Assembly (NCBI RefSeq): GCF_027052235.1
Contig: NZ_JALUFF010000081.1
Span: 5,136-69,135 of the forward strand
DNA: 64,000 bases
Direction of reading: 5' to 3'
Source: Thermococcus sp.
Lineage (GTDB): Archaea > Methanobacteriota_B > Thermococci > Thermococcales > Thermococcaceae
This document shows positions 1-35,344 of the stretch, piece by piece. Every line of letters begins with the position of its first letter. Position 1 is the stretch's first letter. The notes beneath the pieces were generated by a model, which was not told where the DNA came from, searched no databases, and was given only the letters and a program-made list of their open reading frames with translations. Position numbers and translations under genes: made by a program.

Positions 1-1
1 A

Positions 2-2146
2 GGCCCCTGGGGGTTTCAGATAAGGCTTTTCCACCCCCTCGGCCTCTGGATGACCCCCGCTTACCTCCACAAGTTCTTCTCCATCTTCGGCCTCTCACTC
101 TACAACTCCTTCAGGATAACCCCCGTAATCTTCGGTGTCCTGACGGTTGCCTTCGCATACCTCTCCATCCTAAAACTTTACGGCAAAAGAACGGCCTTTC
201 TTTCGGGATTTTTCCTCGCGGTGAGCTTTGGCCACGTCTTCCGCTCGATGGCAGGCTACTACCGCGGGGACAACTACATGCTCTTCTGGTACAGCGTGGC
301 GCTTTTTGGAACGGCACTCGCACTCTCAAAGAAAAATCCGCGCTGGAGGTACAGGCAACTAGTTCTTTACCTGATTCCAGCGTTCTCAACAGGTCTCGCT
401 GCTGCATTCTGGCAGGCCTACTACCCGATATTCGCTCTAGTATTGGCTAATGCCATTTTGCTGGGAATCGGGGCCTTTCTCATCAAGAGAGACCGCTACA
501 TAATTGACGGACTGACTTTGGCGGGAGGAACGGCAATCGGGGCACTCCTCGCCAACCAGATAGGCGCCACTCTCGGCTATGGGATGGTGGGTTACAACCG
601 CTGGATCGCTAAAAAGCTCGCCGAGCAACTAGGAATTCACTTCGGTACAATAAAGGACGTTTTCCTTATATTCTACCTCAAATACGCCCTCCCCGTTGCA
701 CTTTTCGCCCTGCTGGCCCTTCTCATCATCTCAAAGTTCGTGAAGGAGCCGAAACAACGGCTCGCTATAATCGGTGCCGGAACGGCGCTCTTCCTGTGGC
801 TGGGATTTACCTACTTCGACAGGTTCCTGAACGCATTCCTCGGGCTGTTCTCCAGCAACCCCATACTTGAGACCCAGAGGATGTCCTTCAGGGCTTGGTG
901 GGAGGCTTACGGGGTTACGGGTCTGCTCTTTCCACTCTTCTTCCTCCGCTTTAGAAAGCCCAAGATAGCCGATTTTCTGCTTCTTGGAACGCTCACTGTT
1001 CTCCTTCCAATGGCCCTGATCTGGACGCGTTTCCTCTTCATAGCCTCCCTCGGAGTTGCACTTGCCTCGGGTATAGGACTCGTTGAGCTTTACGACCTCT
1101 CGGATTCCCTCGTGAGGAACATCGGGAAAGCTAAGTTAAAGAGGGCCATGTCTTTAATATTGCTTCTCTTTGTGATTGGAACGCCAGCAGTCGCGACCTA
1201 TCAGGGGTTTAAGACCTCACTATCTGTTAAGCCGTTCATGAACCCCTACTGGGAGAACGCGCTCAAATACCTCGGGAACCATTCAAACGTAAACGACGTG
1301 GTTATAACGTGGTGGGATCAGGGCCACTGGGTAACCTATTACTCCATGCGCGCCCCTGTCGCCCAGGGAGAGCCGAGCAAGTGGGTGGCAATGTACTACC
1401 TGGGCCTAAAAAAGGACTCCGAGCTGATGAATCTTGGCGTGGACTACGTGATAGTCTCCTACGATACAGTGTTAAAGTTTGGCTCGGTTGTTGAGACTGC
1501 CGGAGCTCCAGAGGACTACGTCCTCATCCCCCTGTACGGAAGAGAGTCCTATGGAAGTATGCTCGTGTTCTCAAACGGCCCCTACTCCCTGATGGCTGTT
1601 CCCGGGAAGATATGGAACGTCAAGGTTAACATCGCCGGGAGGGTTCTGAGCCCCGAAAGGGCCTTCGTCGAGAGGGGCAAAGTTATCAGCGAGGTTCAGC
1701 TTTCATCCCAGGGGGTCCCAGGCCTCTACGCTTACATCAACCTGAACTATGGTTATGCCGTGATAATGAATCCTAAGGCCTTCAGAACCCCCTTGGCGAG
1801 GCTCATGTTCACCGATGAGTATCCCAAGAACTACAGGCTGGTTTACTCAGACGGAGGTATTGTAAAAATTTTCCGCTTCATCCATCCGAACGTTGTGGTT
1901 GAGCAGGGAAACGGTTCCATCGTGCTGAGGTTCGAGAACGACACGGGAACTTCACTCGGCATACTCGGCTTTCTCGACAACGGGACTCTGGTCTACAAAA
2001 AGTGGTTCAACGTTAAGGGTAAGGACGAGTTTATCCTGCCCGAGAACCTCAATGGGAGTGTGGTCGTCAGATACACCTACACCAAGAAGGGACTAGTTCT
2101 AGACAGGGGCATTTTCAGGATTGACGACGTTCTGGGGACCGGTTAG
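2..2146 (+). CDS. aglB: Oligosaccharyltransferase AglB/STT3 family, 5'-truncated by the window edge
   Basis: Frame is open from position 2 (GPWGFQIRLFHPLGLWM...); many TM helices then a soluble C-terminal domain with WWDQGHW (WWDYG-type motif) and a downstream D-x-x-x-K element. Confidence 0.8.
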   Translation, partial: GPWGFQIRLFHPLGLWMTPAYLHKFFSIFGLSLYNSFRITPVIFGVLTVAFAYLSILKLYGKRTAFLSGFFLAVSFGHVFRSMAGYYRGDNYMLFWYSVALFGTALALSKKNPRWRYRQLVLYLIPAFSTGLAAAFWQAYYPIFALVLANAILLGIGAFLIKRDRYIIDGLTLAGGTAIGALLANQIGATLGYGMVGYNRWIAKKLAEQLGIHFGTIKDVFLIFYLKYALPVALFALLALLIISKFVKEPKQRLAIIGAGTALFLWLGFTYFDRFLNAFLGLFSSNPILETQRMSFRAWWEAYGVTGLLFPLFFLRFRKPKIADFLLLGTLTVLLPMALIWTRFLFIASLGVALASGIGLVELYDLSDSLVRNIGKAKLKRAMSLILLLFVIGTPAVATYQGFKTSLSVKPFMNPYWENALKYLGNHSNVNDVVITWWDQGHWVTYYSMRAPVAQGEPSKWVAMYYLGLKKDSELMNLGVDYVIVSYDTVLKFGSVVETAGAPEDYVLIPLYGRESYGSMLVFSNGPYSLMAVPGKIWNVKVNIAGRVLSPERAFVERGKVISEVQLSSQGVPGLYAYINLNYGYAVIMNPKAFRTPLARLMFTDEYPKNYRLVYSDGGIVKIFRFIHPNVVVEQGNGSIVLRFENDTGTSLGILGFLDNGTLVYKKWFNVKGKDEFILPENLNGSVVVRYTYTKKGLVLDRGIFRIDDVLGTG

Positions 2147-2215
2147 CATCCCGAAACCCTTATTAATCTTCCCGAGTGGTATCCGTAGGTGTATTTAAAG
2201 CCAGAGGTGATCGGA

Positions 2216-2431
2216 ATGGAGGAGCTCGTTGAGATTAAGATACCGAAGAGCCTTTATGATAGGATAAAAGAGCACGTCGAGGGAACTGGCTTCGAAAGCG
2301 TAGATGAGTACGTCACCTACGTCCTCCGGGAAGTTCTCGCGAACCTTGAGGAGGAAGAGGAGGAAGTTTTCAGTGAGGAGGAAGAAGAGAAGGTCAAGGA
2401 GCGTCTCAGGGCCCTCGGCTACCTCGACTGA
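2216..2431 (+). CDS. CopG/ribbon-helix-helix protein with acidic tail ending ERLRALGYLD
   Basis: RBS GAGGTGA before ATG 2216; VEIKIPKSLYDRIKEH RHH pattern. Confidence 0.75.
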   Translation: MEELVEIKIPKSLYDRIKEHVEGTGFESVDEYVTYVLREVLANLEEEEEEVFSEEEEEKVKERLRALGYLD

Positions 2432-2452
2432 TTTCTTTTTTAGGTGGTGGAA

Positions 2453-3592
2453 ATGGTCTCAAAGCCCCATGGCGGAAAGCTTGTAAGGAGAATAGTTGCT
2501 GAAAGAACCCGCGAGAGGATTCTCAGCGAGCAGGAGGAATACCCCAAGGTGGATATAGACCACGGGAGGGCGATAGACCTTGAGAACATCGCCCACGGTG
2601 TTTACTCCCCTCTCAAAGGCTTCCTGACGAGCGACGACTTCCAAAGTGTTCTTGACAGCATGCGCCTGAGCAACGACTTACCATGGACGATTCCGATAGT
2701 CCTCGACGTGAAAAGGCCCAACTTTGACGAGGGGGACGCCGTTCTGCTCTACTACGACGGCCTCCCGATAGCGAGGATGCACGTCGAGGAGATTTACACC
2801 TATGACAAGAGGGAGTTCGCGATCAAGGTATTCAAGACCGATGACATAAACCATCCGGGCGTTGCCCGGGTAATGGGAATGGGTGACTATCTGGTTGGCG
2901 GTGAGATAGAGCTCCTCAACGAGGTTCCAAACCCCTTCGCGAAGTACACCCTTAGGCCGGTCGAGACTAGGGTGCTCTTCAAGGAGCTCGGCTGGAAGAC
3001 GATAGTCGCTTTTCAGACGAGGAACGTTCCTCACCTCGGCCACGAGTACGTCCAGAAAGCGGCTTTAACCTTCGTTGACGGCCTCTTCGTTAACCCCGTC
3101 CTCGGAAGGAAGAAGAAGGGCGACTACAAGGACGAGGTCATAATAAAGGCTTACGAAGCTTTGTTCAGGCATTATTATCCAAGGGACGCTGCGACTCTCG
3201 CGACGGTTCGCTACGAGATGCGCTATGCCGGGCCTAGAGAGGCAATCCACCACGCTATAATGAGGAAGAACATGGGTGCAACGCATTTCATCGTCGGGAG
3301 AGATCACGCTGGCGTTGGCGACTACTACGGGCCATATGAAGCATGGGACATGTTTGACAACTTCCCAGACCTCGGCATAACGCCGATGTTCATCAGGGAG
3401 GCCTTCTACTGCAAGAAGTGCGGGGGAATGGTCAACGCGAAGATATGTCCCCACAGTGAGGAGTTCCACGTCCACATAAGCGGAACAAAGCTGAGGAAGA
3501 TGATTATGGCCGGGGAGCAACCACCGGAGTACATGATGAGGCCCGAGGTTTATGAAGTAGTCAGGAGCTTCGAGAATCCGTTCGTGGAGTGA
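2453..3592 (+). CDS. sat: Sulfate adenylyltransferase (ATP sulfurylase)
   Basis: QTRNVPHLGHE (QxRN..HxGH), VGRDHAG, Zn-site CKKC...C...H; start KPHGGKLV. Confidence 0.97.
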   Translation: MVSKPHGGKLVRRIVAERTRERILSEQEEYPKVDIDHGRAIDLENIAHGVYSPLKGFLTSDDFQSVLDSMRLSNDLPWTIPIVLDVKRPNFDEGDAVLLYYDGLPIARMHVEEIYTYDKREFAIKVFKTDDINHPGVARVMGMGDYLVGGEIELLNEVPNPFAKYTLRPVETRVLFKELGWKTIVAFQTRNVPHLGHEYVQKAALTFVDGLFVNPVLGRKKKGDYKDEVIIKAYEALFRHYYPRDAATLATVRYEMRYAGPREAIHHAIMRKNMGATHFIVGRDHAGVGDYYGPYEAWDMFDNFPDLGITPMFIREAFYCKKCGGMVNAKICPHSEEFHVHISGTKLRKMIMAGEQPPEYMMRPEVYEVVRSFENPFVE

Positions 3593-3626
3593 GTATTATC
3601 CGGCCTTCTCGTTTTAATTCTAAACG

Positions 3627-4682
3627 GTGTTCGGAATGAAGGTTGAGAGTGGCATAGCGGACGTAATTGAAAGTTTCGGCAGGAAGGCAGAAAATGATGC
3701 TCTCAAAGAGTTCCTAACCGAGAGGGCTGGGTTAGAGAAAGCCGGCATGCACCTCATAGTTCACCACTGGGATACGGACGGGATAACCTCAGCGGCGCTT
3801 CTCGTGAAGGCCCTTAAACTGAAGGAGTTCACGAACATGACGGCACCGATAGGCGACTTCAGGTTTGACGAGAGAATATGGAACGCTATCGAGAAGGCCA
3901 ATATACTCTACGTCCTCGACTTCAACGTGCCGAACGAGGTCGAGAGGGTGAGAATTCCGACGCTCTTCATAGACCACCACAATCAGGGAAGGATTAAGAA
4001 CCCGCTCGTGGGGCAGGTCAATCCTTCTCTTAAGGGCGAATACTATCCGTCATGCTCGCTCGTCGTCTCGGAGTATTTCAACGTCTTCAACGCGTGGAGC
4101 GCCCTCGGCGCCGTTGGAGACATCGGCGAGAAGGCTTTCGAGCTGGATGTTGTTAGGAAGCTCCTCAAGAAAGAAGGCCTATCGCAGTCGGAAGCCCTAA
4201 GGCTGGTGGAACTAATAGACTCCAACTACATCGCGATGGACAGAAAAGCGGTGGAGGATGCAGTAAGGGTTCTCCTTGAGAACAATACTAAAGACCTCCT
4301 CGAATACGAGCCTTGGCTCAAGAAAGCGGAAGCGATAAGAGAGGCCATAGAAAAAGCCCTCTCGGATGCCGAGGAGAGGAACGGCTTTGCCTTTGTGGAA
4401 TTTGAGAGTCCCTTCAACATCATCTCAAAGGTCGCGAGAAAGCTCGTCTGGGAGTTAAACTACCGTGGAGCCATTGTTGTCAATGAGAACTTCCACGGAA
4501 AGGCCCAGATGTACTTCAGGATCTCCCCGGAAGAGGCCGAGAGGATAGATATGGAGGGGATTATCGCCAGGCTTAAAGCCTTAGGCACGAACTCCGGGGG
4601 GAAGAGGGAAGTTGTAGGTTGCGTCTGCGGGAGGAATAAAATCAGGAATGCGCTCAGAATCATTGAGGAATATCTGGGGTGA
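3627..4682 (+). CDS. DHH-family phosphoesterase (candidate pAp phosphatase)
   Basis: HHWDTDG, VLDF, IDHH and C-terminal SGG motifs; the pAp role is inferred from context. Confidence 0.8.
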   Translation: MFGMKVESGIADVIESFGRKAENDALKEFLTERAGLEKAGMHLIVHHWDTDGITSAALLVKALKLKEFTNMTAPIGDFRFDERIWNAIEKANILYVLDFNVPNEVERVRIPTLFIDHHNQGRIKNPLVGQVNPSLKGEYYPSCSLVVSEYFNVFNAWSALGAVGDIGEKAFELDVVRKLLKKEGLSQSEALRLVELIDSNYIAMDRKAVEDAVRVLLENNTKDLLEYEPWLKKAEAIREAIEKALSDAEERNGFAFVEFESPFNIISKVARKLVWELNYRGAIVVNENFHGKAQMYFRISPEEAERIDMEGIIARLKALGTNSGGKREVVGCVCGRNKIRNALRIIEEYLG

Positions 4683-6118
4683 GTGTTATGGAGTTTGAGA
4701 GGAAGGTTAGGGAAGGTATGGCCGAAACAAAGAAGCTCTTCGTTATAGGTCTCGATTCCGCTCCGCCGGAGCTGCTCTTCGGAAAGTTCTACGACGAACT
4801 GCCAAACATGAGGAGGCTCATCGAGCGCTCCATCCACGGGCCGATGAAGACGGGGATTCCCGCGATAACGATTCCGATGTGGATGGTCATGGTTACAGGG
4901 AAGACACCGGGCGAGCTCGGTCTCTACGGCTTCAGACACAGGAAGGGCTACAGCTACACGGAATACTGGATTGCCCACAGTAAAAAGGTGAAGGAACCGA
5001 CCCTGTGGGATCATCTTGGCGAAACGGGGAGGAAATCGATAATAGTCGGCGTCCCGCCGACCTATCCGCCGAAGCCGATCAAAGGCCACCTCGTCAGCTG
5101 CTTCATAACGCCCGATGCCAGCGTTGACTACACCTACCCTAAGGAGCTTAAGGGGGAGATTGAGCGTTTGGTTGGCGAGTACATCTTCGACGTCCCGTTC
5201 AGGAAAGAGGCCAAAGATGAAGTTAAGGAAGGCCTCTGGGAGATGACGGAGAAGAGGTTTGAGGTCATCAGATACCTCCTCCAAGAGAAGGACTGGGACT
5301 ACTTCCACTTCGTCGAGATAGGCTTGGATAGAGTTCACCACGCCTTCTGGAGATACTTCGACCCCAACCACCACCTCTATCCGGGAAAAGGAAACAAGTA
5401 CGAGACCGTCATTCCAGACTACTGGAAGCTCCTAGACAAAGAAATTGGAAAGACGCTAAAGCTGATAGACCTAGACGAAACCGCTGTCATGATAGTCTCT
5501 GACCACGGAATCAAGGGGATGCACGGCAACTTCGCCGTCAACCAGTGGCTCGCCGAGGAGGGCCTGCTGAAGATGAGGAACCCTGAGGTTCTGCACGATG
5601 GTAAGGTGAAGCGCTTCGAGCAGGTAAAGATTGACTGGAAGGAGACGACAGCATGGGGCTGGGGAGGCTACTACTCAAGGATCTTCCTCAACGTGAAGGG
5701 CAGGGAACTCTTCGGGAAAGTTCCCAAGAGCAAATTCGAAGAAGTTAGGGACGAGGTTGCCGAGCTTATACGCTCCATAAGGGGGCCGAACGGCGAGAAG
5801 TGGGACAACCGTGTTTACTATCCCGAGGACATCTATCCCGTCACAAGGGGCAGCAAGCCGGACATAATGGTCTACTTCGACAACCTGAACTGGCGCGCGG
5901 CAGGAACCGTTGGGCATCCAACCAACTACCTGCCGGAGAACGACACCGGCCCGGACGACGCCAACCACTCCGAGGTTGGGGTCTTCTCCCTCTACCTGCC
6001 CGGGCTGGATGAGGAGAAGGGGACACAGCTCACAATCTATGACGTTGCTCCAACAGTGCTCACCCTCTTCGGCCTGAGGGAGAAGGCTGAAGAGCTCAGA
6101 GGGAGGAGTATCCTCTAA
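4679..6118 (+). CDS. Alkaline-phosphatase superfamily, type I phosphodiesterase/nucleotide pyrophosphatase-like
   Basis: IGLDS, PAITIPMW (Thr nucleophile), DRVHH, VSDHG, DVAPT...GRSIL. Confidence 0.88.
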   Translation: MSVMEFERKVREGMAETKKLFVIGLDSAPPELLFGKFYDELPNMRRLIERSIHGPMKTGIPAITIPMWMVMVTGKTPGELGLYGFRHRKGYSYTEYWIAHSKKVKEPTLWDHLGETGRKSIIVGVPPTYPPKPIKGHLVSCFITPDASVDYTYPKELKGEIERLVGEYIFDVPFRKEAKDEVKEGLWEMTEKRFEVIRYLLQEKDWDYFHFVEIGLDRVHHAFWRYFDPNHHLYPGKGNKYETVIPDYWKLLDKEIGKTLKLIDLDETAVMIVSDHGIKGMHGNFAVNQWLAEEGLLKMRNPEVLHDGKVKRFEQVKIDWKETTAWGWGGYYSRIFLNVKGRELFGKVPKSKFEEVRDEVAELIRSIRGPNGEKWDNRVYYPEDIYPVTRGSKPDIMVYFDNLNWRAAGTVGHPTNYLPENDTGPDDANHSEVGVFSLYLPGLDEEKGTQLTIYDVAPTVLTLFGLREKAEELRGRSIL

Positions 6119-6133
6119 GCTCTAGGTCTCAAG

Positions 6134-6394
6134 GTGAATGCGATGGAAATTAGGTTCATTCCCCATGCACTGGAGAGACTTAGGGAAAGGAGAATACCAA
6201 AAGAACTCATAGAAGAAACGCTCTCAAGCCCTGACACTGTTTTAGAGGGATACTGCGGCAGGAGAGTCGCTCAGAAACACCTAAACGGTAAACTGATAAG
6301 GGTTATCTACGAAGAGGAAACGGATGGGGTGTTAGTAGTTATTACAGCCTACGTAACGTCAAAAGTCAAAAAACATGGAGGTGAGGAAAGGTGA
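6134..6394 (+). CDS. DUF4258-type (RelE-like) toxin
   Basis: HALERLRERRI...IRVIYEE...VITAY pattern; 4-nt overlap with the next gene. Confidence 0.75.
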   Translation: MNAMEIRFIPHALERLRERRIPKELIEETLSSPDTVLEGYCGRRVAQKHLNGKLIRVIYEEETDGVLVVITAYVTSKVKKHGGEER

Positions 6395-6606
6395 GGATAT
6401 CCTACGATCCCAAGCACGATGTCATGTACATAAAGTTCTCCGACGCAAAGATTGTCGAGACCATTGAGGTAGAAGAAGGTGTGATAATAGACTACGGCGA
6501 GAACGGGGAGATAGTAGGCATAGAAATAATCAACGCCTCTATGAGAACTCATTCGTATCCTTTAAACGAAATAACTGTGAAGATCGAAGAGGCCACAGTC
6601 CATTAA
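6391..6606 (+). CDS. DUF2283-type antitoxin partner
   Basis: ISYDPKHDVMYI...IIDYGENGEIVGIEII signature. Confidence 0.8.
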   Translation: MRISYDPKHDVMYIKFSDAKIVETIEVEEGVIIDYGENGEIVGIEIINASMRTHSYPLNEITVKIEEATVH

Positions 6607-6637
6607 TGCTTGGCAATCATCGAACGGAGGGGATGAG

Positions 6638-7183
6638 ATGACTGGGCACAAAAGCCTCGAAAAGGGCTTTACAATCTGGCTCACAGGGCCGAGCGGGGCG
6701 GGGAAGACGACCTTAGCCGTAAAGCTGGCAAAAAGACTAAGGGAAATGGGCTACCGCGTCGAGATACTCGATGGCGATACGATAAGAAAAACCCTCTACC
6801 CAAACCTGGGCTTTTCAAAGGAAGCCAGGGAGATGCACAACAGGGTTGTAATCCATATGGCCAAGCTCCTCAGCAGGAACGGCGTCATAGCGATAGTTTC
6901 GCTAATCTCGCCATACAAAGCCGTCAGAGAATACGCGAGAAAAGAGATAGGAGACTTCATCGAGGTCTACGTTTACGCTCCCCTGGAGGTCAGGATAAAG
7001 CGCGACCCGAAAGGGCTCTACGCGAAAGCGTTAAGGGGCGAGATAAAAGGATTAACTGGCTACGACGGCGTTTATGAGGAACCTGAAAACCCGGAAGTTG
7101 AAGTAGACTCCTCAAGGATGACTCCAGAGGAGGAAGTTGAGGCAGTCATAGCAAAGGCCCGCGAGCTGGGCTACCTGCCTTGA
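6638..7183 (+). CDS. cysC: Adenylyl-sulfate kinase
   Basis: IWLTGPSGAGKTT P-loop, LDGD, DPKGLY, YEEPENPE. Confidence 0.96.
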   Translation: MTGHKSLEKGFTIWLTGPSGAGKTTLAVKLAKRLREMGYRVEILDGDTIRKTLYPNLGFSKEAREMHNRVVIHMAKLLSRNGVIAIVSLISPYKAVREYARKEIGDFIEVYVYAPLEVRIKRDPKGLYAKALRGEIKGLTGYDGVYEEPENPEVEVDSSRMTPEEEVEAVIAKARELGYLP

Positions 7184-7201
7184 ACCTACGGGGGGAGGGC
7201 G

Positions 7202-7939
7202 TTGGATCCAACCTTTATCGGGCTGGGCTTTCTGGTGGGCTTCCTCGTCGGCCTCACCGGCGTCGGCGGCGGTGCTTTAATGACGCCTTCCCTTATATTC
7301 CTCGGTGTCGAGCCCGTTGTAGCGGTGGGTACCGACCTTCTTTATGCAACGGTTACGAGGATCTTCGGGGTACTCTTTCACGGAAGGAAGTGCGGGATAA
7401 GGTACGACATAGCACTGAGGCTCTTCGCCGGGAGCGTTCCCGCGGTGATTCTAGGTGGACTGCTCCTCCGCTGGATAGACAAGGAAGTCCTCAACGAGTA
7501 CCTCACGGTTCTCCTCGGGACTATCCTGATAACAAGCGCAATTTTGGGACTCCTCAAAGGGGAAATCCATGTCCCGATAAGACCGAGGTGGGCTTACGTT
7601 TATCTCCTCGGATTCATCGTGGGTTTAACCGTCCAGTTCACATCCGTTGGGGCAGGGGTGATAGTGAGCTTCACGCTGATGAATATCGCCCGGTTAGAGC
7701 CCAGAGATGTCGTTGGCGTGACTATAGTTTATGGTTTGGCACTTTCTGGACTGAGTTTCCTCAACTACGCCGGTCTTAACGGTGTTGACTACGGTCTGGC
7801 TTTTCTCCTAATTCTGGGAACAATTCCCGGGGTTTACCTCGGGACTCATGTTAACAGGAATTCTACGGGAGAGAAACTCAAACGGGCGATAAACGTTATA
7901 GTTCTGGTGATTGGGCTTCTGATAGTGTTTAAGGGATAA
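7202..7939 (+). CDS. TSUP/TauE-SafE family sulfite/sulfur-compound exporter
   Basis: GLTGVGGGALMTP, AVGTDL, second repeat SVGAG; hydrophobic. Confidence 0.88.
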   Translation: MDPTFIGLGFLVGFLVGLTGVGGGALMTPSLIFLGVEPVVAVGTDLLYATVTRIFGVLFHGRKCGIRYDIALRLFAGSVPAVILGGLLLRWIDKEVLNEYLTVLLGTILITSAILGLLKGEIHVPIRPRWAYVYLLGFIVGLTVQFTSVGAGVIVSFTLMNIARLEPRDVVGVTIVYGLALSGLSFLNYAGLNGVDYGLAFLLILGTIPGVYLGTHVNRNSTGEKLKRAINVIVLVIGLLIVFKG

Positions 7940-8011: not shown

Positions 8012-8089
8012 GCCCGGGTGGTGTAGCCCGGTCAATCATGCGGGACTCTCGATCCCGCGACCCGGGTTCAAATCCCGGCCCGGGCACCA
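8012..8089 (+). tRNA. tRNA-Glu(CTC)
   Basis: Acceptor GCCCGGG/CCCGGGC, anticodon arm CGGGA-CTCTCGA-TCCCG, GTTCAAATC T-loop, encoded CCA. Confidence 0.96.
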
Positions 8090-8099
8090 AACTTCTCCT

Positions 8100-8177
8100 G
8101 GGCCCGTGGCTCAGCCTGGTCAGAGCGCCCGCCTGATAAGCGGGAGGTCCGGGGTTCGAAGCCCCGCGGGCCCACCA
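8100..8177 (+). tRNA. tRNA-Ile(GAT)
   Basis: Acceptor GGGCCCG/CGGGCCC, anticodon arm CCCGC-CTGATAA-GCGGG, GTTCGAA T-loop, encoded CCA. Confidence 0.96.
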
Positions 8178-33424: not shown

Positions 33425-34359
33425 TCCCCATCTTCCTCCTTCTTTTTCTTTCCGCTTCAGTCTCTGCGTATCCTTATGTTAAAGCGCCCGGCGGCCTTTA
33501 TGAAGTTCAGTATTCCGTTCTCTCAAACGGAACCGGGGCATTAATTCACCTCTCGATCCTTCAGTGGGGAATTGACTGTGGAATGACCGACTGCTGGCCG
33601 GCCGTCTTTTACGGTCATGAATACCTCCTTTACTTCAACGGCTCCCACCTCTACCTCCTGAATTTCACACCCGTGCTGAGAACACCCTACGTGGAATATA
33701 AAGGGGCGAGCTTTCTAAATGGGAGCTGGTACATTGAGGTTAAGTATTCCAATGATGAAATTGATAGGTTTTACCGGCTTGACATCAGACATTTCTGTAT
33801 TGAGCCTGCTAACGTTAGTTGGCTCTGGCTTCCAAAGGGGAACGTCAGCGACTCCATATACGGCTGGAAGATTGAGTTGCAGTCGCTGGGTCCCGGTGAG
33901 TGGAGCCACACGAACGTTAGCGACATCTGGATTGCTCTGAATAGAAATGTGAGCAGTTGGTCCCCTGGTCCGGTAACACTGGTGAACTCGAGCGTTTTCC
34001 CTGTCTACTTCACTCTTAAAAAAGACAATAACACGAGGAAGATTGCCATAATCTACGTCAATACAACCAACAACTCCAAAGGATTGATAGAAGGCTTCTG
34101 GTTTCCTAAGAGTGTTAAAATCGTAAATGTAACAGTCTGCAAGTCAACTGTCCCTCAAGAGAATATCACTTTGAACGAAACCAAGACTCAAACGTCTGCC
34201 CAGGGGAGCATCACTCGTTCTTCCACGAACACCATTGAAAAAACGAACAAAACATCGCCCTCACCTCAAACTTCCAGCAAAAAGAGCATTTGCGGACCCG
34301 GACTGATAGTGATTATTGTGGTGGGCACTGTGTTTTTTGTTAGGACGAGACGAGGTTAG
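33409..34359 (+). CDS. CGP-CTERM-anchored surface glycoprotein
   Basis: Signal peptide, many NxS/T sequons, S/T-rich linker, ICGPGLIVIIVVGTVFFVRTRRG tail. Confidence 0.88.
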   Translation: MSRLVIPIFLLLFLSASVSAYPYVKAPGGLYEVQYSVLSNGTGALIHLSILQWGIDCGMTDCWPAVFYGHEYLLYFNGSHLYLLNFTPVLRTPYVEYKGASFLNGSWYIEVKYSNDEIDRFYRLDIRHFCIEPANVSWLWLPKGNVSDSIYGWKIELQSLGPGEWSHTNVSDIWIALNRNVSSWSPGPVTLVNSSVFPVYFTLKKDNNTRKIAIIYVNTTNNSKGLIEGFWFPKSVKIVNVTVCKSTVPQENITLNETKTQTSAQGSITRSSTNTIEKTNKTSPSPQTSSKKSICGPGLIVIIVVGTVFFVRTRRG

Positions 34360-34417
34360 GTCAGCCGGAAGGTTAACGTTAAAAGCCCCCTTTCTCCCCT
34401 ATTTCAGGTGGAGAAAA

Positions 34418-35344
34418 ATGCCCGTGAAATGTAAGTTCTGCGATAAACCAGCCTTCATCAAGCTCCATTACCCAAAAATGTACCTCTGCGAGGAGCACTT
34501 CACAGAGTACTTTGAGAGAAAGGTGAAGCGAACCATCGAACGCTACAAGATGCTCAAGCCGGACGAGAGGGTTCTGGTCGTCGTCTCGGGCGGAAAGGAT
34601 TCAGCGGTTACCGCCTACGTCCTCAAAAAGTTCGGCTACAACACGGAGTGCCTACATATAAACCTCGGGATAGGCGAGTACAGCGAGAAGGGCGAGAGCT
34701 ATGCGAAAAGGCAGTGCGAGAAGATTGGAGCGCCCCTCCACATCGTCCGTGTGAAGGAACTGTTTGGTTATGGCATAGGTGAGGTCAGGACGAGAAGACC
34801 GACGTGCTCCTACTGCGGTCTAACCAAGCGCTACATCTTCAACAAGTTCGCCTACGACAACGGATTTGATGTCATTGCCACGGGGCACAACCTCGACGAC
34901 GAGGCGAGCTTCATATTCAACAACATAATGAACTGGAACACGCAGTATTTGGCAAAGCAGGGACCGGTCACCCCCTCAGCCTTCAACGGCAAGCTGGTGA
35001 AGAAGGTTAAACCGCTTTATGAGGTCACGGAGCGGGAGGTTGTCGCCTACGCTCTGGCGAACGGAATAGAGTACGAGATAGATGAGTGCCCGCACGCGAG
35101 GGGAGCCACAACGCTGGAGTGGAAGGCAATACTAAACGAAATGGAGGAGAAGAGGCCCGGAACTAAAATCAACTTCGTCAAGGGCTATCTGAGGAAGAAA
35201 TACCTCTTCGAGGCCGAGCTGGAGAAGACTGAACTCAGGGAATGCAAAGTTTGCGGAATGCCGTCGAGCGGAGAAGTTTGCTCGTTCTGCAGGTTCTGGG
35301 GGCTTGAGAAGCCGATAGACTTTAGAGTGAAGCCCAAAAGTTGA
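34418..35344 (+). CDS. ttuA: tRNA 2-thiolation enzyme TtuA/Ncs6 family
   Basis: CKFC N-terminus, SGGKDS PP-loop, CSYC, TGHNLDD, C-terminal CKVC...CSFC. Confidence 0.88.
   Translation: MPVKCKFCDKPAFIKLHYPKMYLCEEHFTEYFERKVKRTIERYKMLKPDERVLVVVSGGKDSAVTAYVLKKFGYNTECLHINLGIGEYSEKGESYAKRQCEKIGAPLHIVRVKELFGYGIGEVRTRRPTCSYCGLTKRYIFNKFAYDNGFDVIATGHNLDDEASFIFNNIMNWNTQYLAKQGPVTPSAFNGKLVKKVKPLYEVTEREVVAYALANGIEYEIDECPHARGATTLEWKAILNEMEEKRPGTKINFVKGYLRKKYLFEAELEKTELRECKVCGMPSSGEVCSFCRFWGLEKPIDFRVKPKS

Follow-up and report, generated by a model that had tools for sequence, protein, structure and literature searches.

A PAPS-forming gene cassette behind an oligosaccharyltransferase paralogue in Thermococcus sp. 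and its proposed role in the sulfation of cell-envelope glycans

The window in this study was a stretch of 64,000 nucleotides of the Thermococcus sp. genome, and it begins with a series of tightly spaced genes on the + strand. The earlier note had listed them as aglB, a ribbon-helix-helix (RHH) gene, sat, a DHH gene, an alkaline-phosphatase (AP)-superfamily gene, cysC and a TSUP gene. All of these were found at positions 1-7939, and only a DUF4258/DUF2283 pair (6134-6606), located between the AP-superfamily gene and cysC, had been overlooked. The first gene (1-2146, 5' end outside the window) encodes AglB-S, which belongs to the STT3/AglB/PglB family as a short paralogue of the archaeal oligosaccharyltransferase. 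In the 70-nt spacer 3' of its stop codon are a TTTAAA box and a Shine-Dalgarno-like motif, GGTGAT. The cassette starts with a small RHH (CopG-like) protein (2216-2431; weak match to RHH_1, E = 0.018), which corresponds by position to PYCH_17520, the copG of Jin et al. (PMC8268124). In 34 of the 35 compared loci, the exception being L025, the cassette begins with the RHH gene, whose product is presumed to be its regulator. The ATP sulfurylase gene sat (2444-3592) matched PF01747 (E = 6.6e-92), PUA_2 (E = 2.3e-51) and NF003166 (546 bits, cut-off 387 bits). Its start codon is likely to be the ATG at 2454, and Sat identity was 77-96% over six genera. Sat converts sulfate and ATP to APS and PPi, and APS kinase, the product of cysC (6638-7183; PF01583, E = 4.5e-59; TIGR00455, 226 bits, cut-off 138.7 bits), converts APS and ATP to PAPS.

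The DHH-family protein (3627-4682) was aligned over residues 34-350 with PDB 8a8k, the PAP phosphatase of Methanothermococcus thermolithotrophicus (E = 2.9e-116). Translation probably begins about 40 codons 3' of 3627, and orthologues at the compared loci are mostly 307-331 aa long. The orthologues TON_1706 and PYCH_17540 are reported to be 3'-phosphoadenosine 5'-phosphate (pAp) phosphatases (PMC4463584; PMC8268124). The AP-superfamily enzyme (4679-6118; type I phosphodiesterase/NPP-like, PF01663, E = 2.9e-51) gave no solved-structure homologue in a sequence search. Its T. onnurineus orthologue TON_1705 was called a pyrophosphatase (PMC4463584), and the same role was speculated for PYCH_17550 (PMC8268124). 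The overlapping DUF4258 and DUF2283 genes (6134-6394, PF14076, E = 2.4e-12; 6391-6606, PF10049, E = 4e-20) look like a toxin-antitoxin pair. Ten of the 35 loci have the complete pair, L033 has the DUF2283 gene alone and the others have neither; because it is missing from most loci, the pair is not a core part of the cassette. The final gene encodes a TauE/SafE (TSUP) membrane transporter (7202-7939; PF01925, E = 4.2e-41), a recognisable copy of which lies 3' of cysC in 32 of the 35 loci and which probably takes up sulfate. Two tRNA genes predicted by ARAGORN, tRNA-Glu(CTC) and tRNA-Ile(GAT) (8012-8177, + strand), form the right-hand border in Thermococcus sp.

Clusters of this kind have been labelled assimilatory in the literature, and candidate PAPS and sulfite reductases have been named in T. 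onnurineus (PMC8268124; PMC4463584). According to this explanation, a PAPS-reductase-domain protein would form sulfite from PAPS, and a sulfite reductase that has escaped recognition would turn this into sulfide for cysteine synthesis. It is favoured by the assimilation pathway of M. thermolithotrophicus, which shares the first steps and a homologous DHH pAp phosphatase (PDB 8a8k), and by five ORFs with a PAPS_reduct domain in the Thermococcus sp. genome. That genome (95.5% complete, 86 contigs) was searched together with 96 relatives, giving a set of 97 Thermococcaceae genomes, 65 with sat and 32 without. The genome-wide search found no NIR_SIR sulfite reductase in Thermococcus sp., and this siroheme enzyme was missing from 96 of the 97 genomes and found in one. 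The strong PAPS_reduct matches were a PUA+Fer4 fusion (NF010369) and PRK08576. The PAPS_reduct proteins carry PUA or ferredoxin domains and score far under the CysH cut-offs, and every one of the 79 high-quality genomes has the PUA/Fer4 fusion, the 21 without sat among them. The ORF at 34316-35344, the only PAPS_reduct-like one in the window, was rejected as a PAPS reductase, being the tRNA sulfurtransferase TtuA (NF049949, 525 bits). The earlier note was correct that neither a PAPS reductase nor a sulfite reductase nor a sulfotransferase is encoded in the window, and the genome-wide look for a cysH or sulfite reductase sink agreed with its view that PAPS is not consumed in this way. Thermococcales live on peptides and sulfur, so that sulfide is available, which was also counted against assimilation. 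The candidate reductases were, moreover, undetected in the T. onnurineus proteome (PMC4463584). We consider assimilation improbable.

The cassette borders glycan genes in about 33 of the 35 loci, which belong to six genera. A Wzx flippase gene lies immediately 3' of TauE in 17 of the 35, and the other glycan neighbours include RmlA/B/C-like genes, UDP-Glc dehydrogenase, DegT and GT2. In relatives, the cassette is located between a cation-efflux gene and Wzx. The homologous cation-efflux gene of Thermococcus sp. is on contig C68, followed by Wzx, two sulfatase-family c44 genes and a glycosyltransferase (GT) gene. A rearrangement has probably brought the cassette directly behind AglB-S and the dTDP-sugar and flippase genes that accompany it, whereas the usual partner module (Wzx flippase, the two sulfatase-like genes and GT genes) has remained at its usual site on C68. 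Similarly, G071 has kept a sulfotransferase/GT2/c19 module at the cation-efflux site, and its cassette is about 200 kb off beside AglB-S. The left flank of the cassette differs among at least three contexts, and in these and after relocation it still borders glycan genes. In Methanothrix, cysD-tauE-cysN, with TauE between cysD and cysN, adjoin a c44 homologue, Wzx and GT genes. CysDN is a sulfate activation system non-homologous to the cassette and represents an independent case of glycan association.

The search for sulfotransferases, which the earlier note had thought of genome-wide, gave a divided result. None of the P-loop type was recognisable in the Thermococcus sp. genome with six Pfam sulfotransferase families, whereas 26 of the 65 sat-positive genomes, all relatives, encode one and 0 of the 32 sat-negative genomes do. 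The sulfatase families c19 and c44 were present in 27 and 16 of the 65 sat-positive genomes, respectively, and PF00884 matches at E <= 1e-10 in 41 of them, each compared with 0 of the 32 sat-negative genomes. Taking a P-loop sulfotransferase, c19 or c44 together, the counts were 47 and 0 genomes (Fisher p = 4e-13, a value that ignores relatedness). Two sulfotransferase families lie near the cassette, both with a 5'-PSB loop and one matching PF13469 (E = 5.6e-21). Many sulfotransferase and sulfatase-family genes are 6-22 kb from sat within glycan clusters, and block inheritance of linked genes may be behind part of the co-occurrence. Some of these genes are unlinked, at a distance of 150-300 kb from sat (G013, G022, G029, G071 and G023), and therefore linkage alone does not account for the pattern. 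In G070, sat and c44 are both broken.

Another explanation is that PAPS serves the sulfation of lipids, small metabolites or proteins, or PAPS/pAp signalling, and that the glycan neighbours are inherited synteny only. Jin et al. raised a messenger role (PMC8268124), and in the T. onnurineus proteome PAP phosphatase and ATP sulfurylase differ in their response to sulfur (PMC4463584). The lack of a recognisable P-loop sulfotransferase in Thermococcus sp. is in line with it, as are 13 sat-positive genomes without a strong match to either the sulfotransferase or the sulfatase-like class. However, the recognisable sulfotransferases sit among Wzx flippases, glycosyltransferases and nucleotide-sugar enzymes, the glycan border is kept across the left-flank contexts and after relocation, and CysDN in Methanothrix shows an equal association. 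We regard this explanation as unlikely, though less so than assimilation. Because sulfite reductase occurs in one genome, the PAPS_reduct proteins are universal or TtuA, and P-loop sulfotransferases and strong sulfatase-family matches occur in sat-positive genomes only, our results favour glycan sulfation over assimilation; the proposal of the earlier note that PAPS is used for sulfotransfer is most likely right.

The full AglB-S gene (C81:4921-7281, 786 aa) starts 215 nt upstream of the window. Every Pfam and NCBIfam match was under its cut-off, and the best PDB matches of its AlphaFold model (pLDDT 78) were AglB 7e9s, PglB 5ogl and STT3 (probability 1.0, TM 0.53-0.61). In 13 homologues, D47, D162, E362 and W509-W510-D511-x-G513 are invariant and K564 is near-invariant; the motif in Thermococcus sp. 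is WWDQG. Linkage of aglB with sat across the family held in a loose form: AglB-S directly adjoins sat in about 14 of the 65 sat-positive genomes, all of one genus, and the two genes are 4-60 kb apart in many genomes of five genera. AglB-S is present in 47 of 65 sat-positive and 25 of 32 sat-negative genomes, which is no correlation (p = 0.63), and 18 sat-positive genomes are without it. A promoter-like region is conserved 5' of the cassette whatever the left-hand neighbour, so the cassette probably has its own promoter. These findings weaken the link to the AglB substrate, named in the earlier note as a possible sulfation target, and that note's interpretation as a whole was partly supported.

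They also speak for a further explanation, in which glycan sulfation is real, the sulfate goes to the AglB-L N-glycan or to a polysaccharide of the secreted or capsular kind rather than to the AglB-S substrate, and the adjacency of aglB-S and sat is an accident of island rearrangement. The usual partner module, which stands at the cation-efflux site without AglB, agrees with this. On the other side, sat-dependent sulfatase-like genes directly adjoin AglB-S in G017 and G022 (order c19-Wzx-AglB-S-RmlA), the 4-60 kb spacing recurs in five genera, and the sulfation genes of Halobacterium lie within its aglB cluster (PMC11980604). In a metagenomic cluster, c44-like genes were also found alongside a gene for an AglB-core protein. 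We give this explanation a smaller yet appreciable chance. The AglB link is weaker than the case for glycan sulfation over assimilation.

In this study, we believed it probable that window positions 2216-7939 are a self-contained PAPS cassette, in which PAPS is the sulfate donor for cell-envelope glycans and is not reduced to sulfide. Sulfate would be imported by TauE and converted to APS by Sat, and the removal of PPi by the AP-type pyrophosphatase, an activity reported for an orthologue, would pull the unfavourable Sat step forward. CysC would then form PAPS, the DHH enzyme would destroy the inhibitory by-product pAp, as reported for its orthologues, and the RHH protein might regulate the cassette. 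The sulfate of PAPS would be passed to cell-envelope glycans, the products of variable biosynthesis islands next to which the cassette is nearly always located. Since Thermococcus sp. has no recognisable P-loop sulfotransferase, the likeliest transferring enzymes are the two cytoplasmic sulfatase-like c44 paralogues in the glycan cluster on C68. Both carry Thr at the nucleophile position and would act in analogy to Agl30/Agl31. PAPS use by the c44 and c19 proteins is putative, and the acceptor may be an N-glycan, possibly that of AglB-S, or a polysaccharide.

Contrary to its treatment as unreported, the RHH-to-TauE gene set is the published Thermococcales "sulfate assimilation" cassette, PYCH_17520-17570 of P. 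yayanosii (PMC8268124), and is therefore not new; its T. onnurineus NA1 counterpart is TON_1704-1707 (Lee et al. 2009, cited by PMC4463584). The order is identical: copG/RHH, ATP sulfurylase, DHH pAp phosphatase, pyrophosphatase, APS kinase and TauE. The Thermococcus sp. cassette differs in lying behind an AglB paralogue and not between the cation-efflux gene and Wzx, in its variant RHH, in the lack of the TTAATTAAATG... repeat operator, and in the inserted DUF4258/DUF2283 pair. The cluster papers left the PAPS sink open or labelled it assimilation (PMC8268124; PMC4463584), whereas the present comparison points to glycan sulfation, and Jin et al. noted sulfotransferase genes adjoining the cassette in other archaea (PMC8268124). 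The proposed use of PAPS is cell-surface sugar sulfation and not cysteine synthesis. The pathway of M. thermolithotrophicus also has ATP sulfurylase and APS kinase, followed by a PAPS reductase and an F420-dependent sulfite reductase. Thermococcus sp. shares its DHH-type PAP phosphatase, whereas no sulfite reductase was detectable and the neighbours are glycan genes.

AglB-S resembles the paralogues of Archaeoglobus fulgidus and Pyrococcus (AglB-L, AglB-S1/S2; PMC3703281), whose roles were stated there as unknown, in being a short paralogue that accompanies the universal long AglB and in its STT3 fold and WWDYG-type motif. It differs from solved oligosaccharyltransferases in its 12-18% identity, sub-threshold Pfam scores and WWDQG motif. 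The literature searched described no sulfated glycan or lipid from Thermococcales; the sole N-glycan structure found, that of T. kodakarensis, has inositol phosphate and no sulfate in the description in PMC11407970. In Hbt. salinarum, the sulfatase-like Agl30/Agl31 of an aglB-anchored cluster are genetically required for N-glycan sulfation (PMC11980604). These and Agl7 of Hfx. volcanii (PMC3892788) are, like the c44 proteins, sulfatase-like members of the AP superfamily in glycan clusters, a likeness of family and context, and Agl31 is cytoplasmic, as are the c44 paralogues. A c44 homologue with 39% identity lies among rhamnose-synthesis, flippase and GT genes in Haloferax gibbonsii. The haloarchaeal papers named no sulfate donor (PMC11980604; PMC3892788), whereas the sulfatase-like genes of Thermococcaceae are confined to genomes with the PAPS cassette, which suggests PAPS as the donor.

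Nine co-oriented genes on the plus strand fill positions 1-7939 of the window. The first of them encodes AglB-S, a short, STT3-like membrane protein of 786 aa and paralogue of the long oligosaccharyltransferase AglB (AglB-L); it occupies positions 4921-7281 (+) of contig C81, which carries the window, and begins 215 nt before the window start. It is followed on the same strand by a small RHH protein (2216-2431), sat (2444-3592), a DHH protein (3627-4682), an alkaline-phosphatase (AP)-superfamily enzyme (4679-6118; PF01663), a DUF4258/DUF2283 gene pair with a 4-nt overlap (6134-6606), cysC (6638-7183) and a TauE/TSUP transporter (7202-7939). The scores of Sat (NF003166, 546 bits, cut-off 387; TIGR00339, 394 bits, cut-off 323) and CysC (TIGR00455, 226 bits, cut-off 138.7) exceed the curated family cut-offs. 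The DHH protein matched the PAP phosphatase of M. thermolithotrophicus (PDB 8a8k) at E 2.9e-116; by homology, and from activities that the literature gives for the orthologues, it is predicted to be a pAp phosphatase and the AP-superfamily protein a pyrophosphatase (PPase). The earlier note had described aglB, RHH, sat, DHH, AP enzyme, cysC and TSUP as co-oriented and closely spaced, which the profile matches and coordinates confirmed; its gene list had overlooked the DUF4258/DUF2283 pair between the PPase gene and cysC.

This gene set is already published, and the cassette is therefore not new. The P. yayanosii cluster consists of copG, ATP sulfurylase, a DHH pApase, a type I phosphodiesterase/pyrophosphatase and APS kinase, with an adjacent TauE (Jin et al., PMC8268124), and the same four enzymes are named in PMC4463584; for T. 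onnurineus, TON_1704-1707 are attributed to Lee et al. 2009, as cited in PMC8268124. The cassette in the window has the same content and order as TON_1704-1707 and PYCH_17520-17570, on a single strand. Both PMC8268124 and PMC4463584 term the cluster assimilatory; they also state that P. yayanosii has no identified sulfotransferase or sulfite-to-sulfide enzyme and that proteomics of T. onnurineus did not detect the candidate reductases. The cassette has been described for more than 15 years without a known PAPS consumer, and sulfate assimilation is its routine annotation.

An assimilatory route would need enzymes that reduce the activated sulfate, and these were searched for in the source assembly (G000; 1.89 Mb, 86 contigs, 95.5% complete). 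The siroheme sulfite reductase profile NIR_SIR had no match in this 95.5% complete genome and was found in only 1 of the 97 Thermococcaceae genomes. The source genome has five PAPS_reduct-domain ORFs, and none scored as a CysH-type APS/PAPS reductase (55-78 bits against cut-offs of 154-165); they were assigned to PRK13795/PRK08576 or TtuA. The two strong ones are a PRK08576 protein and a fusion of PUA, PAPS_reduct and 2x[4Fe-4S] ferredoxin domains (NF010369; C84:5281-7230, locus L001), which is annotated as 'hypothetical'. This fusion was present in 79/79 high-quality Thermococcaceae genomes, including 21 without sat, whereas sat was present in 58/79; therefore, it is no dedicated consumer of the cassette product, and its PUA domain suggests an RNA substrate. 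As the earlier note had stated, the window has no APS/PAPS reductase. The only PAPS_reduct-like ORF there, at 34316-35344, is the tRNA-5-methyluridine(54) 2-sulfurtransferase TtuA (NF049949, 525 bits) and is unrelated to the cassette. An assimilatory fate for the PAPS is not supported, and the proposal that it serves sulfotransfer instead is well supported by the comparative evidence.

ORFs in the 20-kb surroundings of sat were clustered for 34 other genomes of six genera and compared with the source locus (35 loci in all). The order RHH-sat-DHH-PPase-cysC-TauE was kept in most of them across the six genera, and rearranged or degraded cassettes were seen at L023, L026-L028 and L038. Occasional insertions were the DUF4258/DUF2283 pair, which resembles a toxin-antitoxin pair and is complete in 10/35 cassettes, or, in its place in other cassettes, a PIN-domain gene that separates sat from DHH. 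Glycan genes bordered the cassette in about 33 of the 35 loci. A Wzx flippase was the commonest right-hand neighbour (directly after TauE in 17/35 loci), with GT2 enzymes, DegT, UDP-glucose dehydrogenase and RmlA/B/C-like genes beyond it; several families of cytoplasmic AP-superfamily proteins also occurred in these flanking regions. The left-hand neighbours varied by lineage and were a cation-efflux gene, a c43 gene, RmlA or AglB-S.

In the relatives, two families with P-loop features adjoin the cassette: c45, which matched PF13469 (E 5.6e-21) and PF00685 (E 2.5e-18), and c23, which has a GSPRSGSTW 5'-phosphosulfate-binding (5'-PSB) loop. Judged by these sequence features, both are bona fide sulfotransferase families. 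We compared 65 sat-positive with 32 sat-negative Thermococcaceae genomes. P-loop sulfotransferases were present in 26/65 and 0/32, respectively, most of them 6-22 kb from sat; at locus L019, one is the second gene beyond tauE. Two clusters of sulfatase-family ORFs behaved in the same way (c19, 27/65 and 0/32; c44, 16/65 and 0/32), as did all PF00884 matches at E <= 1e-10 (41/65 and 0/32). Any of P-loop sulfotransferase, c19 or c44 was found in 47/65 sat-positive genomes vs 0/32 sat-negative ones (one-sided Fisher p = 4e-13, uncorrected for relatedness). The sat-negative genomes span four genera and the sat-dependent genes five or six. Many sat-dependent genes lie 6-22 kb from sat; others lie 150-300 kb away (G013, G022, G029, G023, G071), so physical linkage alone is insufficient to explain the pattern. 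Decay was also observed: both sat and c44 are broken at G070:C1:839586-865374, sat is split at G006:C1:1158677-1159677, and at G009:C1:971696-971978 the c23 sulfotransferase has stop codons while sat is intact.

No P-loop sulfotransferase was detected in the source genome with the Pfam models Sulfotransfer_1 to _5 and Stf0, in an assembly that is 95.5% complete and in which the AglB-S island continues past a contig end. Searches of the same genome with tblastn and with HMMs from the relatives' two sulfotransferase families gave E > 0.3 throughout. A Sulfotransfer_2 match on contig C15 (15 bits, E 0.017) was taken as noise. Two ORFs near the cassette, the 253-aa protein upstream and a 165-aa membrane protein downstream, were considered and have no P-loop or sulfotransferase features, and the same holds for clusters c68, c52, c36 and others. 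Sulfatase-like genes in genomes without any P-loop sulfotransferase were found in 21 cases, the source genome included.

In the source genome, the sulfatase-like genes are apart from the cassette. Contig C68 has the order cation-efflux gene, Wzx, c44, c44, GT1 and three GT4 genes, and the two c44 paralogues between Wzx and the GT genes (P0005 and P0006) matched PF00884 at E 1e-34 and 1e-32. The two c44 genes occupy C68:44681-46099 and C68:46086-47432. In many relatives, the cassette lies exactly between that cation-efflux gene and Wzx. The cassette has therefore moved to the AglB-S island in the lineage of the source genome, and its usual partner module was left behind. tRNA-Glu(CTC) and tRNA-Ile(GAT) (8012-8177) directly follow TauE and border the relocated cassette. 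The same split is seen in G071, where the cassette is beside AglB-S, about 200 kb from the efflux-gene site, and that site retains the module sulfotransferase-GT2-AP-GT2-c19-GT2. Upstream of AglB-S on C81 are an RmlA-like nucleotidyltransferase, an NAD-dependent epimerase/dehydratase, the 253-aa protein, which has no Pfam assignment, and a flippase of the Wzx type that is truncated at the contig end; thus, the cassette adjoins a glycan-biosynthesis island. The glycan islands are fragmented in this assembly, and a 4.6-kb contig (C29:1-4585, L044) has another AglB-S paralogue, of 783 aa and 60% identity, beside an RmlA-like gene.

AglB-S itself scored below the curated cut-offs (PF22627, 19.6 bits against 27; PF02516, 17.5 against 24.5; TIGR04154, 44.9 against 450), so its OST membership rests on fold and motifs. 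The model (pLDDT 78.4) has a multi-span N-terminal membrane domain and a C-terminal globular domain, which is the OST fold, and its top Foldseek matches were AglB 7e9s, PglB 5ogl and STT3 (probability 1.0, TM 0.53-0.61). Among 13 homologues, D47, D162, E362, W509, W510, D511 and G513 do not vary and K564 hardly does; where the family consensus reads WWDYG, the source-genome protein has WWDQG, and the DK motif was assigned by eye. Judged by modelled fold and by the conserved D47, D162, E362 and WWDxG motifs, AglB-S is a genuine STT3-family member. The long AglB is universal in Thermococcaceae. Direct adjacency of AglB-S, RHH and sat was seen in about 14 genomes, all of one genus, and the presence of AglB-S was uncorrelated with that of sat (p = 0.63); both results speak against a specific link. 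For a looser link speak the distance of 4-60 kb between sat and AglB-S in many genomes from five genera, and the arrangement in G017 and G022, where AglB-S is directly flanked by a sat-dependent c19 gene and Wzx.

In most relatives, a conserved TATA box followed by a TTAATTAAATGTCATTAAATATCATTAAA repeat region precedes the start of RHH by about 20-60 nt (L008-L041), whatever the left neighbour, and both elements are also present at the AglB-S-adjacent loci. RHH probably has its operator in the repeat region. In the source genome and at L014, L015, L017 and L028, RHH is of a second variant (MEELVEIKIPKSLYDRIKEHV...) and the TTAATTAAATGTCATTAAATATCATTAAA repeats are missing. A TTTAAA box lies in the 70-nt spacer before RHH in the source genome, together with a Shine-Dalgarno-like motif. 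Because RHH has its own promoter-like elements, we infer that the cassette is probably a transcription unit separate from AglB-S, which also speaks against a specific link between the two.

The c19 and c44 proteins retain the spacing of the sulfatase signature with the sequence W-T-x-P-S...G-L-Y-P. At the Cys or Ser position of formylglycine sulfatases they have an invariant Thr, the signature Arg is absent, and the C/S-x-P-x-R formylglycine signature was not found in c44, c19 or the aligned homologues, which makes an ordinary sulfatase function unlikely. These proteins lack both signal peptides and membrane segments. The Thr-type reading is also seen in homologues from Methanothrix and metagenomes. 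The strict dependence of the Thr-type genes on sulfate-activation genes points to a non-P-loop sulfotransferase class. That these cytoplasmic proteins are a second class of glycan sulfotransferase, using the cassette's PAPS (or APS), is a tentative proposal that we consider possible and somewhat short of an even chance. Their co-occurrence with sat suggests PAPS as the donor, and PAPS fits better than APS because the genomes with only sulfatase-like genes retain cysC and the pAp phosphatase. On a Methanothrix harundinacea metagenome contig (L050, 5218-11395), cysD-tauE-cysN lies within a glycan cluster, with a sulfatase-like gene, Wzx and GTs. CysD (351 bits) and CysN (356 bits) are above their cut-offs and not homologous to Sat, no APS kinase was found within 10 kb of cysD-tauE-cysN, and the donor there may be APS, not PAPS.

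The glycan-gene neighbours and the co-occurrence make glycans the likely acceptor of the cassette-derived sulfate; this part of the earlier note's proposal stands, and the glycan of AglB-S may be the specific target. Searches of the literature returned no account of a sulfated glycan or glycoconjugate in Thermococcales, so sulfation is a prediction here. Thermococcales may sulfate their surface glycans, and the comparison renders this reading directly testable. If it is true, the surface charge of these hyperthermophiles, their biofilm behaviour and their interactions with viruses and vesicles need re-examination. The comparison also offers a first functional clue to one of the unexplained AglB paralogues. 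If the Thr-type class is also true, many Thermococcales would have sulfated N-glycans, and AglB-S may be the enzyme that attaches them.

Glycan clusters of other archaea commonly contain homologues of these sulfatase-like proteins, at 40-47% identity. For example, one metagenomic contig has two sulfatase-like copies alongside an AglB-core protein, and Haloferax gibbonsii has a homologue among rhamnose-synthesis, flippase and GT genes. In Hbt. salinarum, the sulfatase-like Agl30 and the cytoplasmic Agl31 are needed for sulfation of the N-glycan and are both encoded in an aglB-anchored cluster, and no sulfate donor is named for them (PMC11980604). The co-occurrence with sat bears on such haloarchaeal sulfatase-like "sulfotransferases", found by genetics in 2025, as it suggests a donor for them and also Thermococcales as a tractable hyperthermophilic system in which to study such enzymes biochemically. 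If the Thr-type class is true, enzymes of the Agl30/Agl31 type would gain the donor and the mechanism that they lack. Likened by description, the C68 paralogues resemble Agl30 and Agl31 in that they too have an AP-superfamily sulfatase domain and lie in a glycan cluster.
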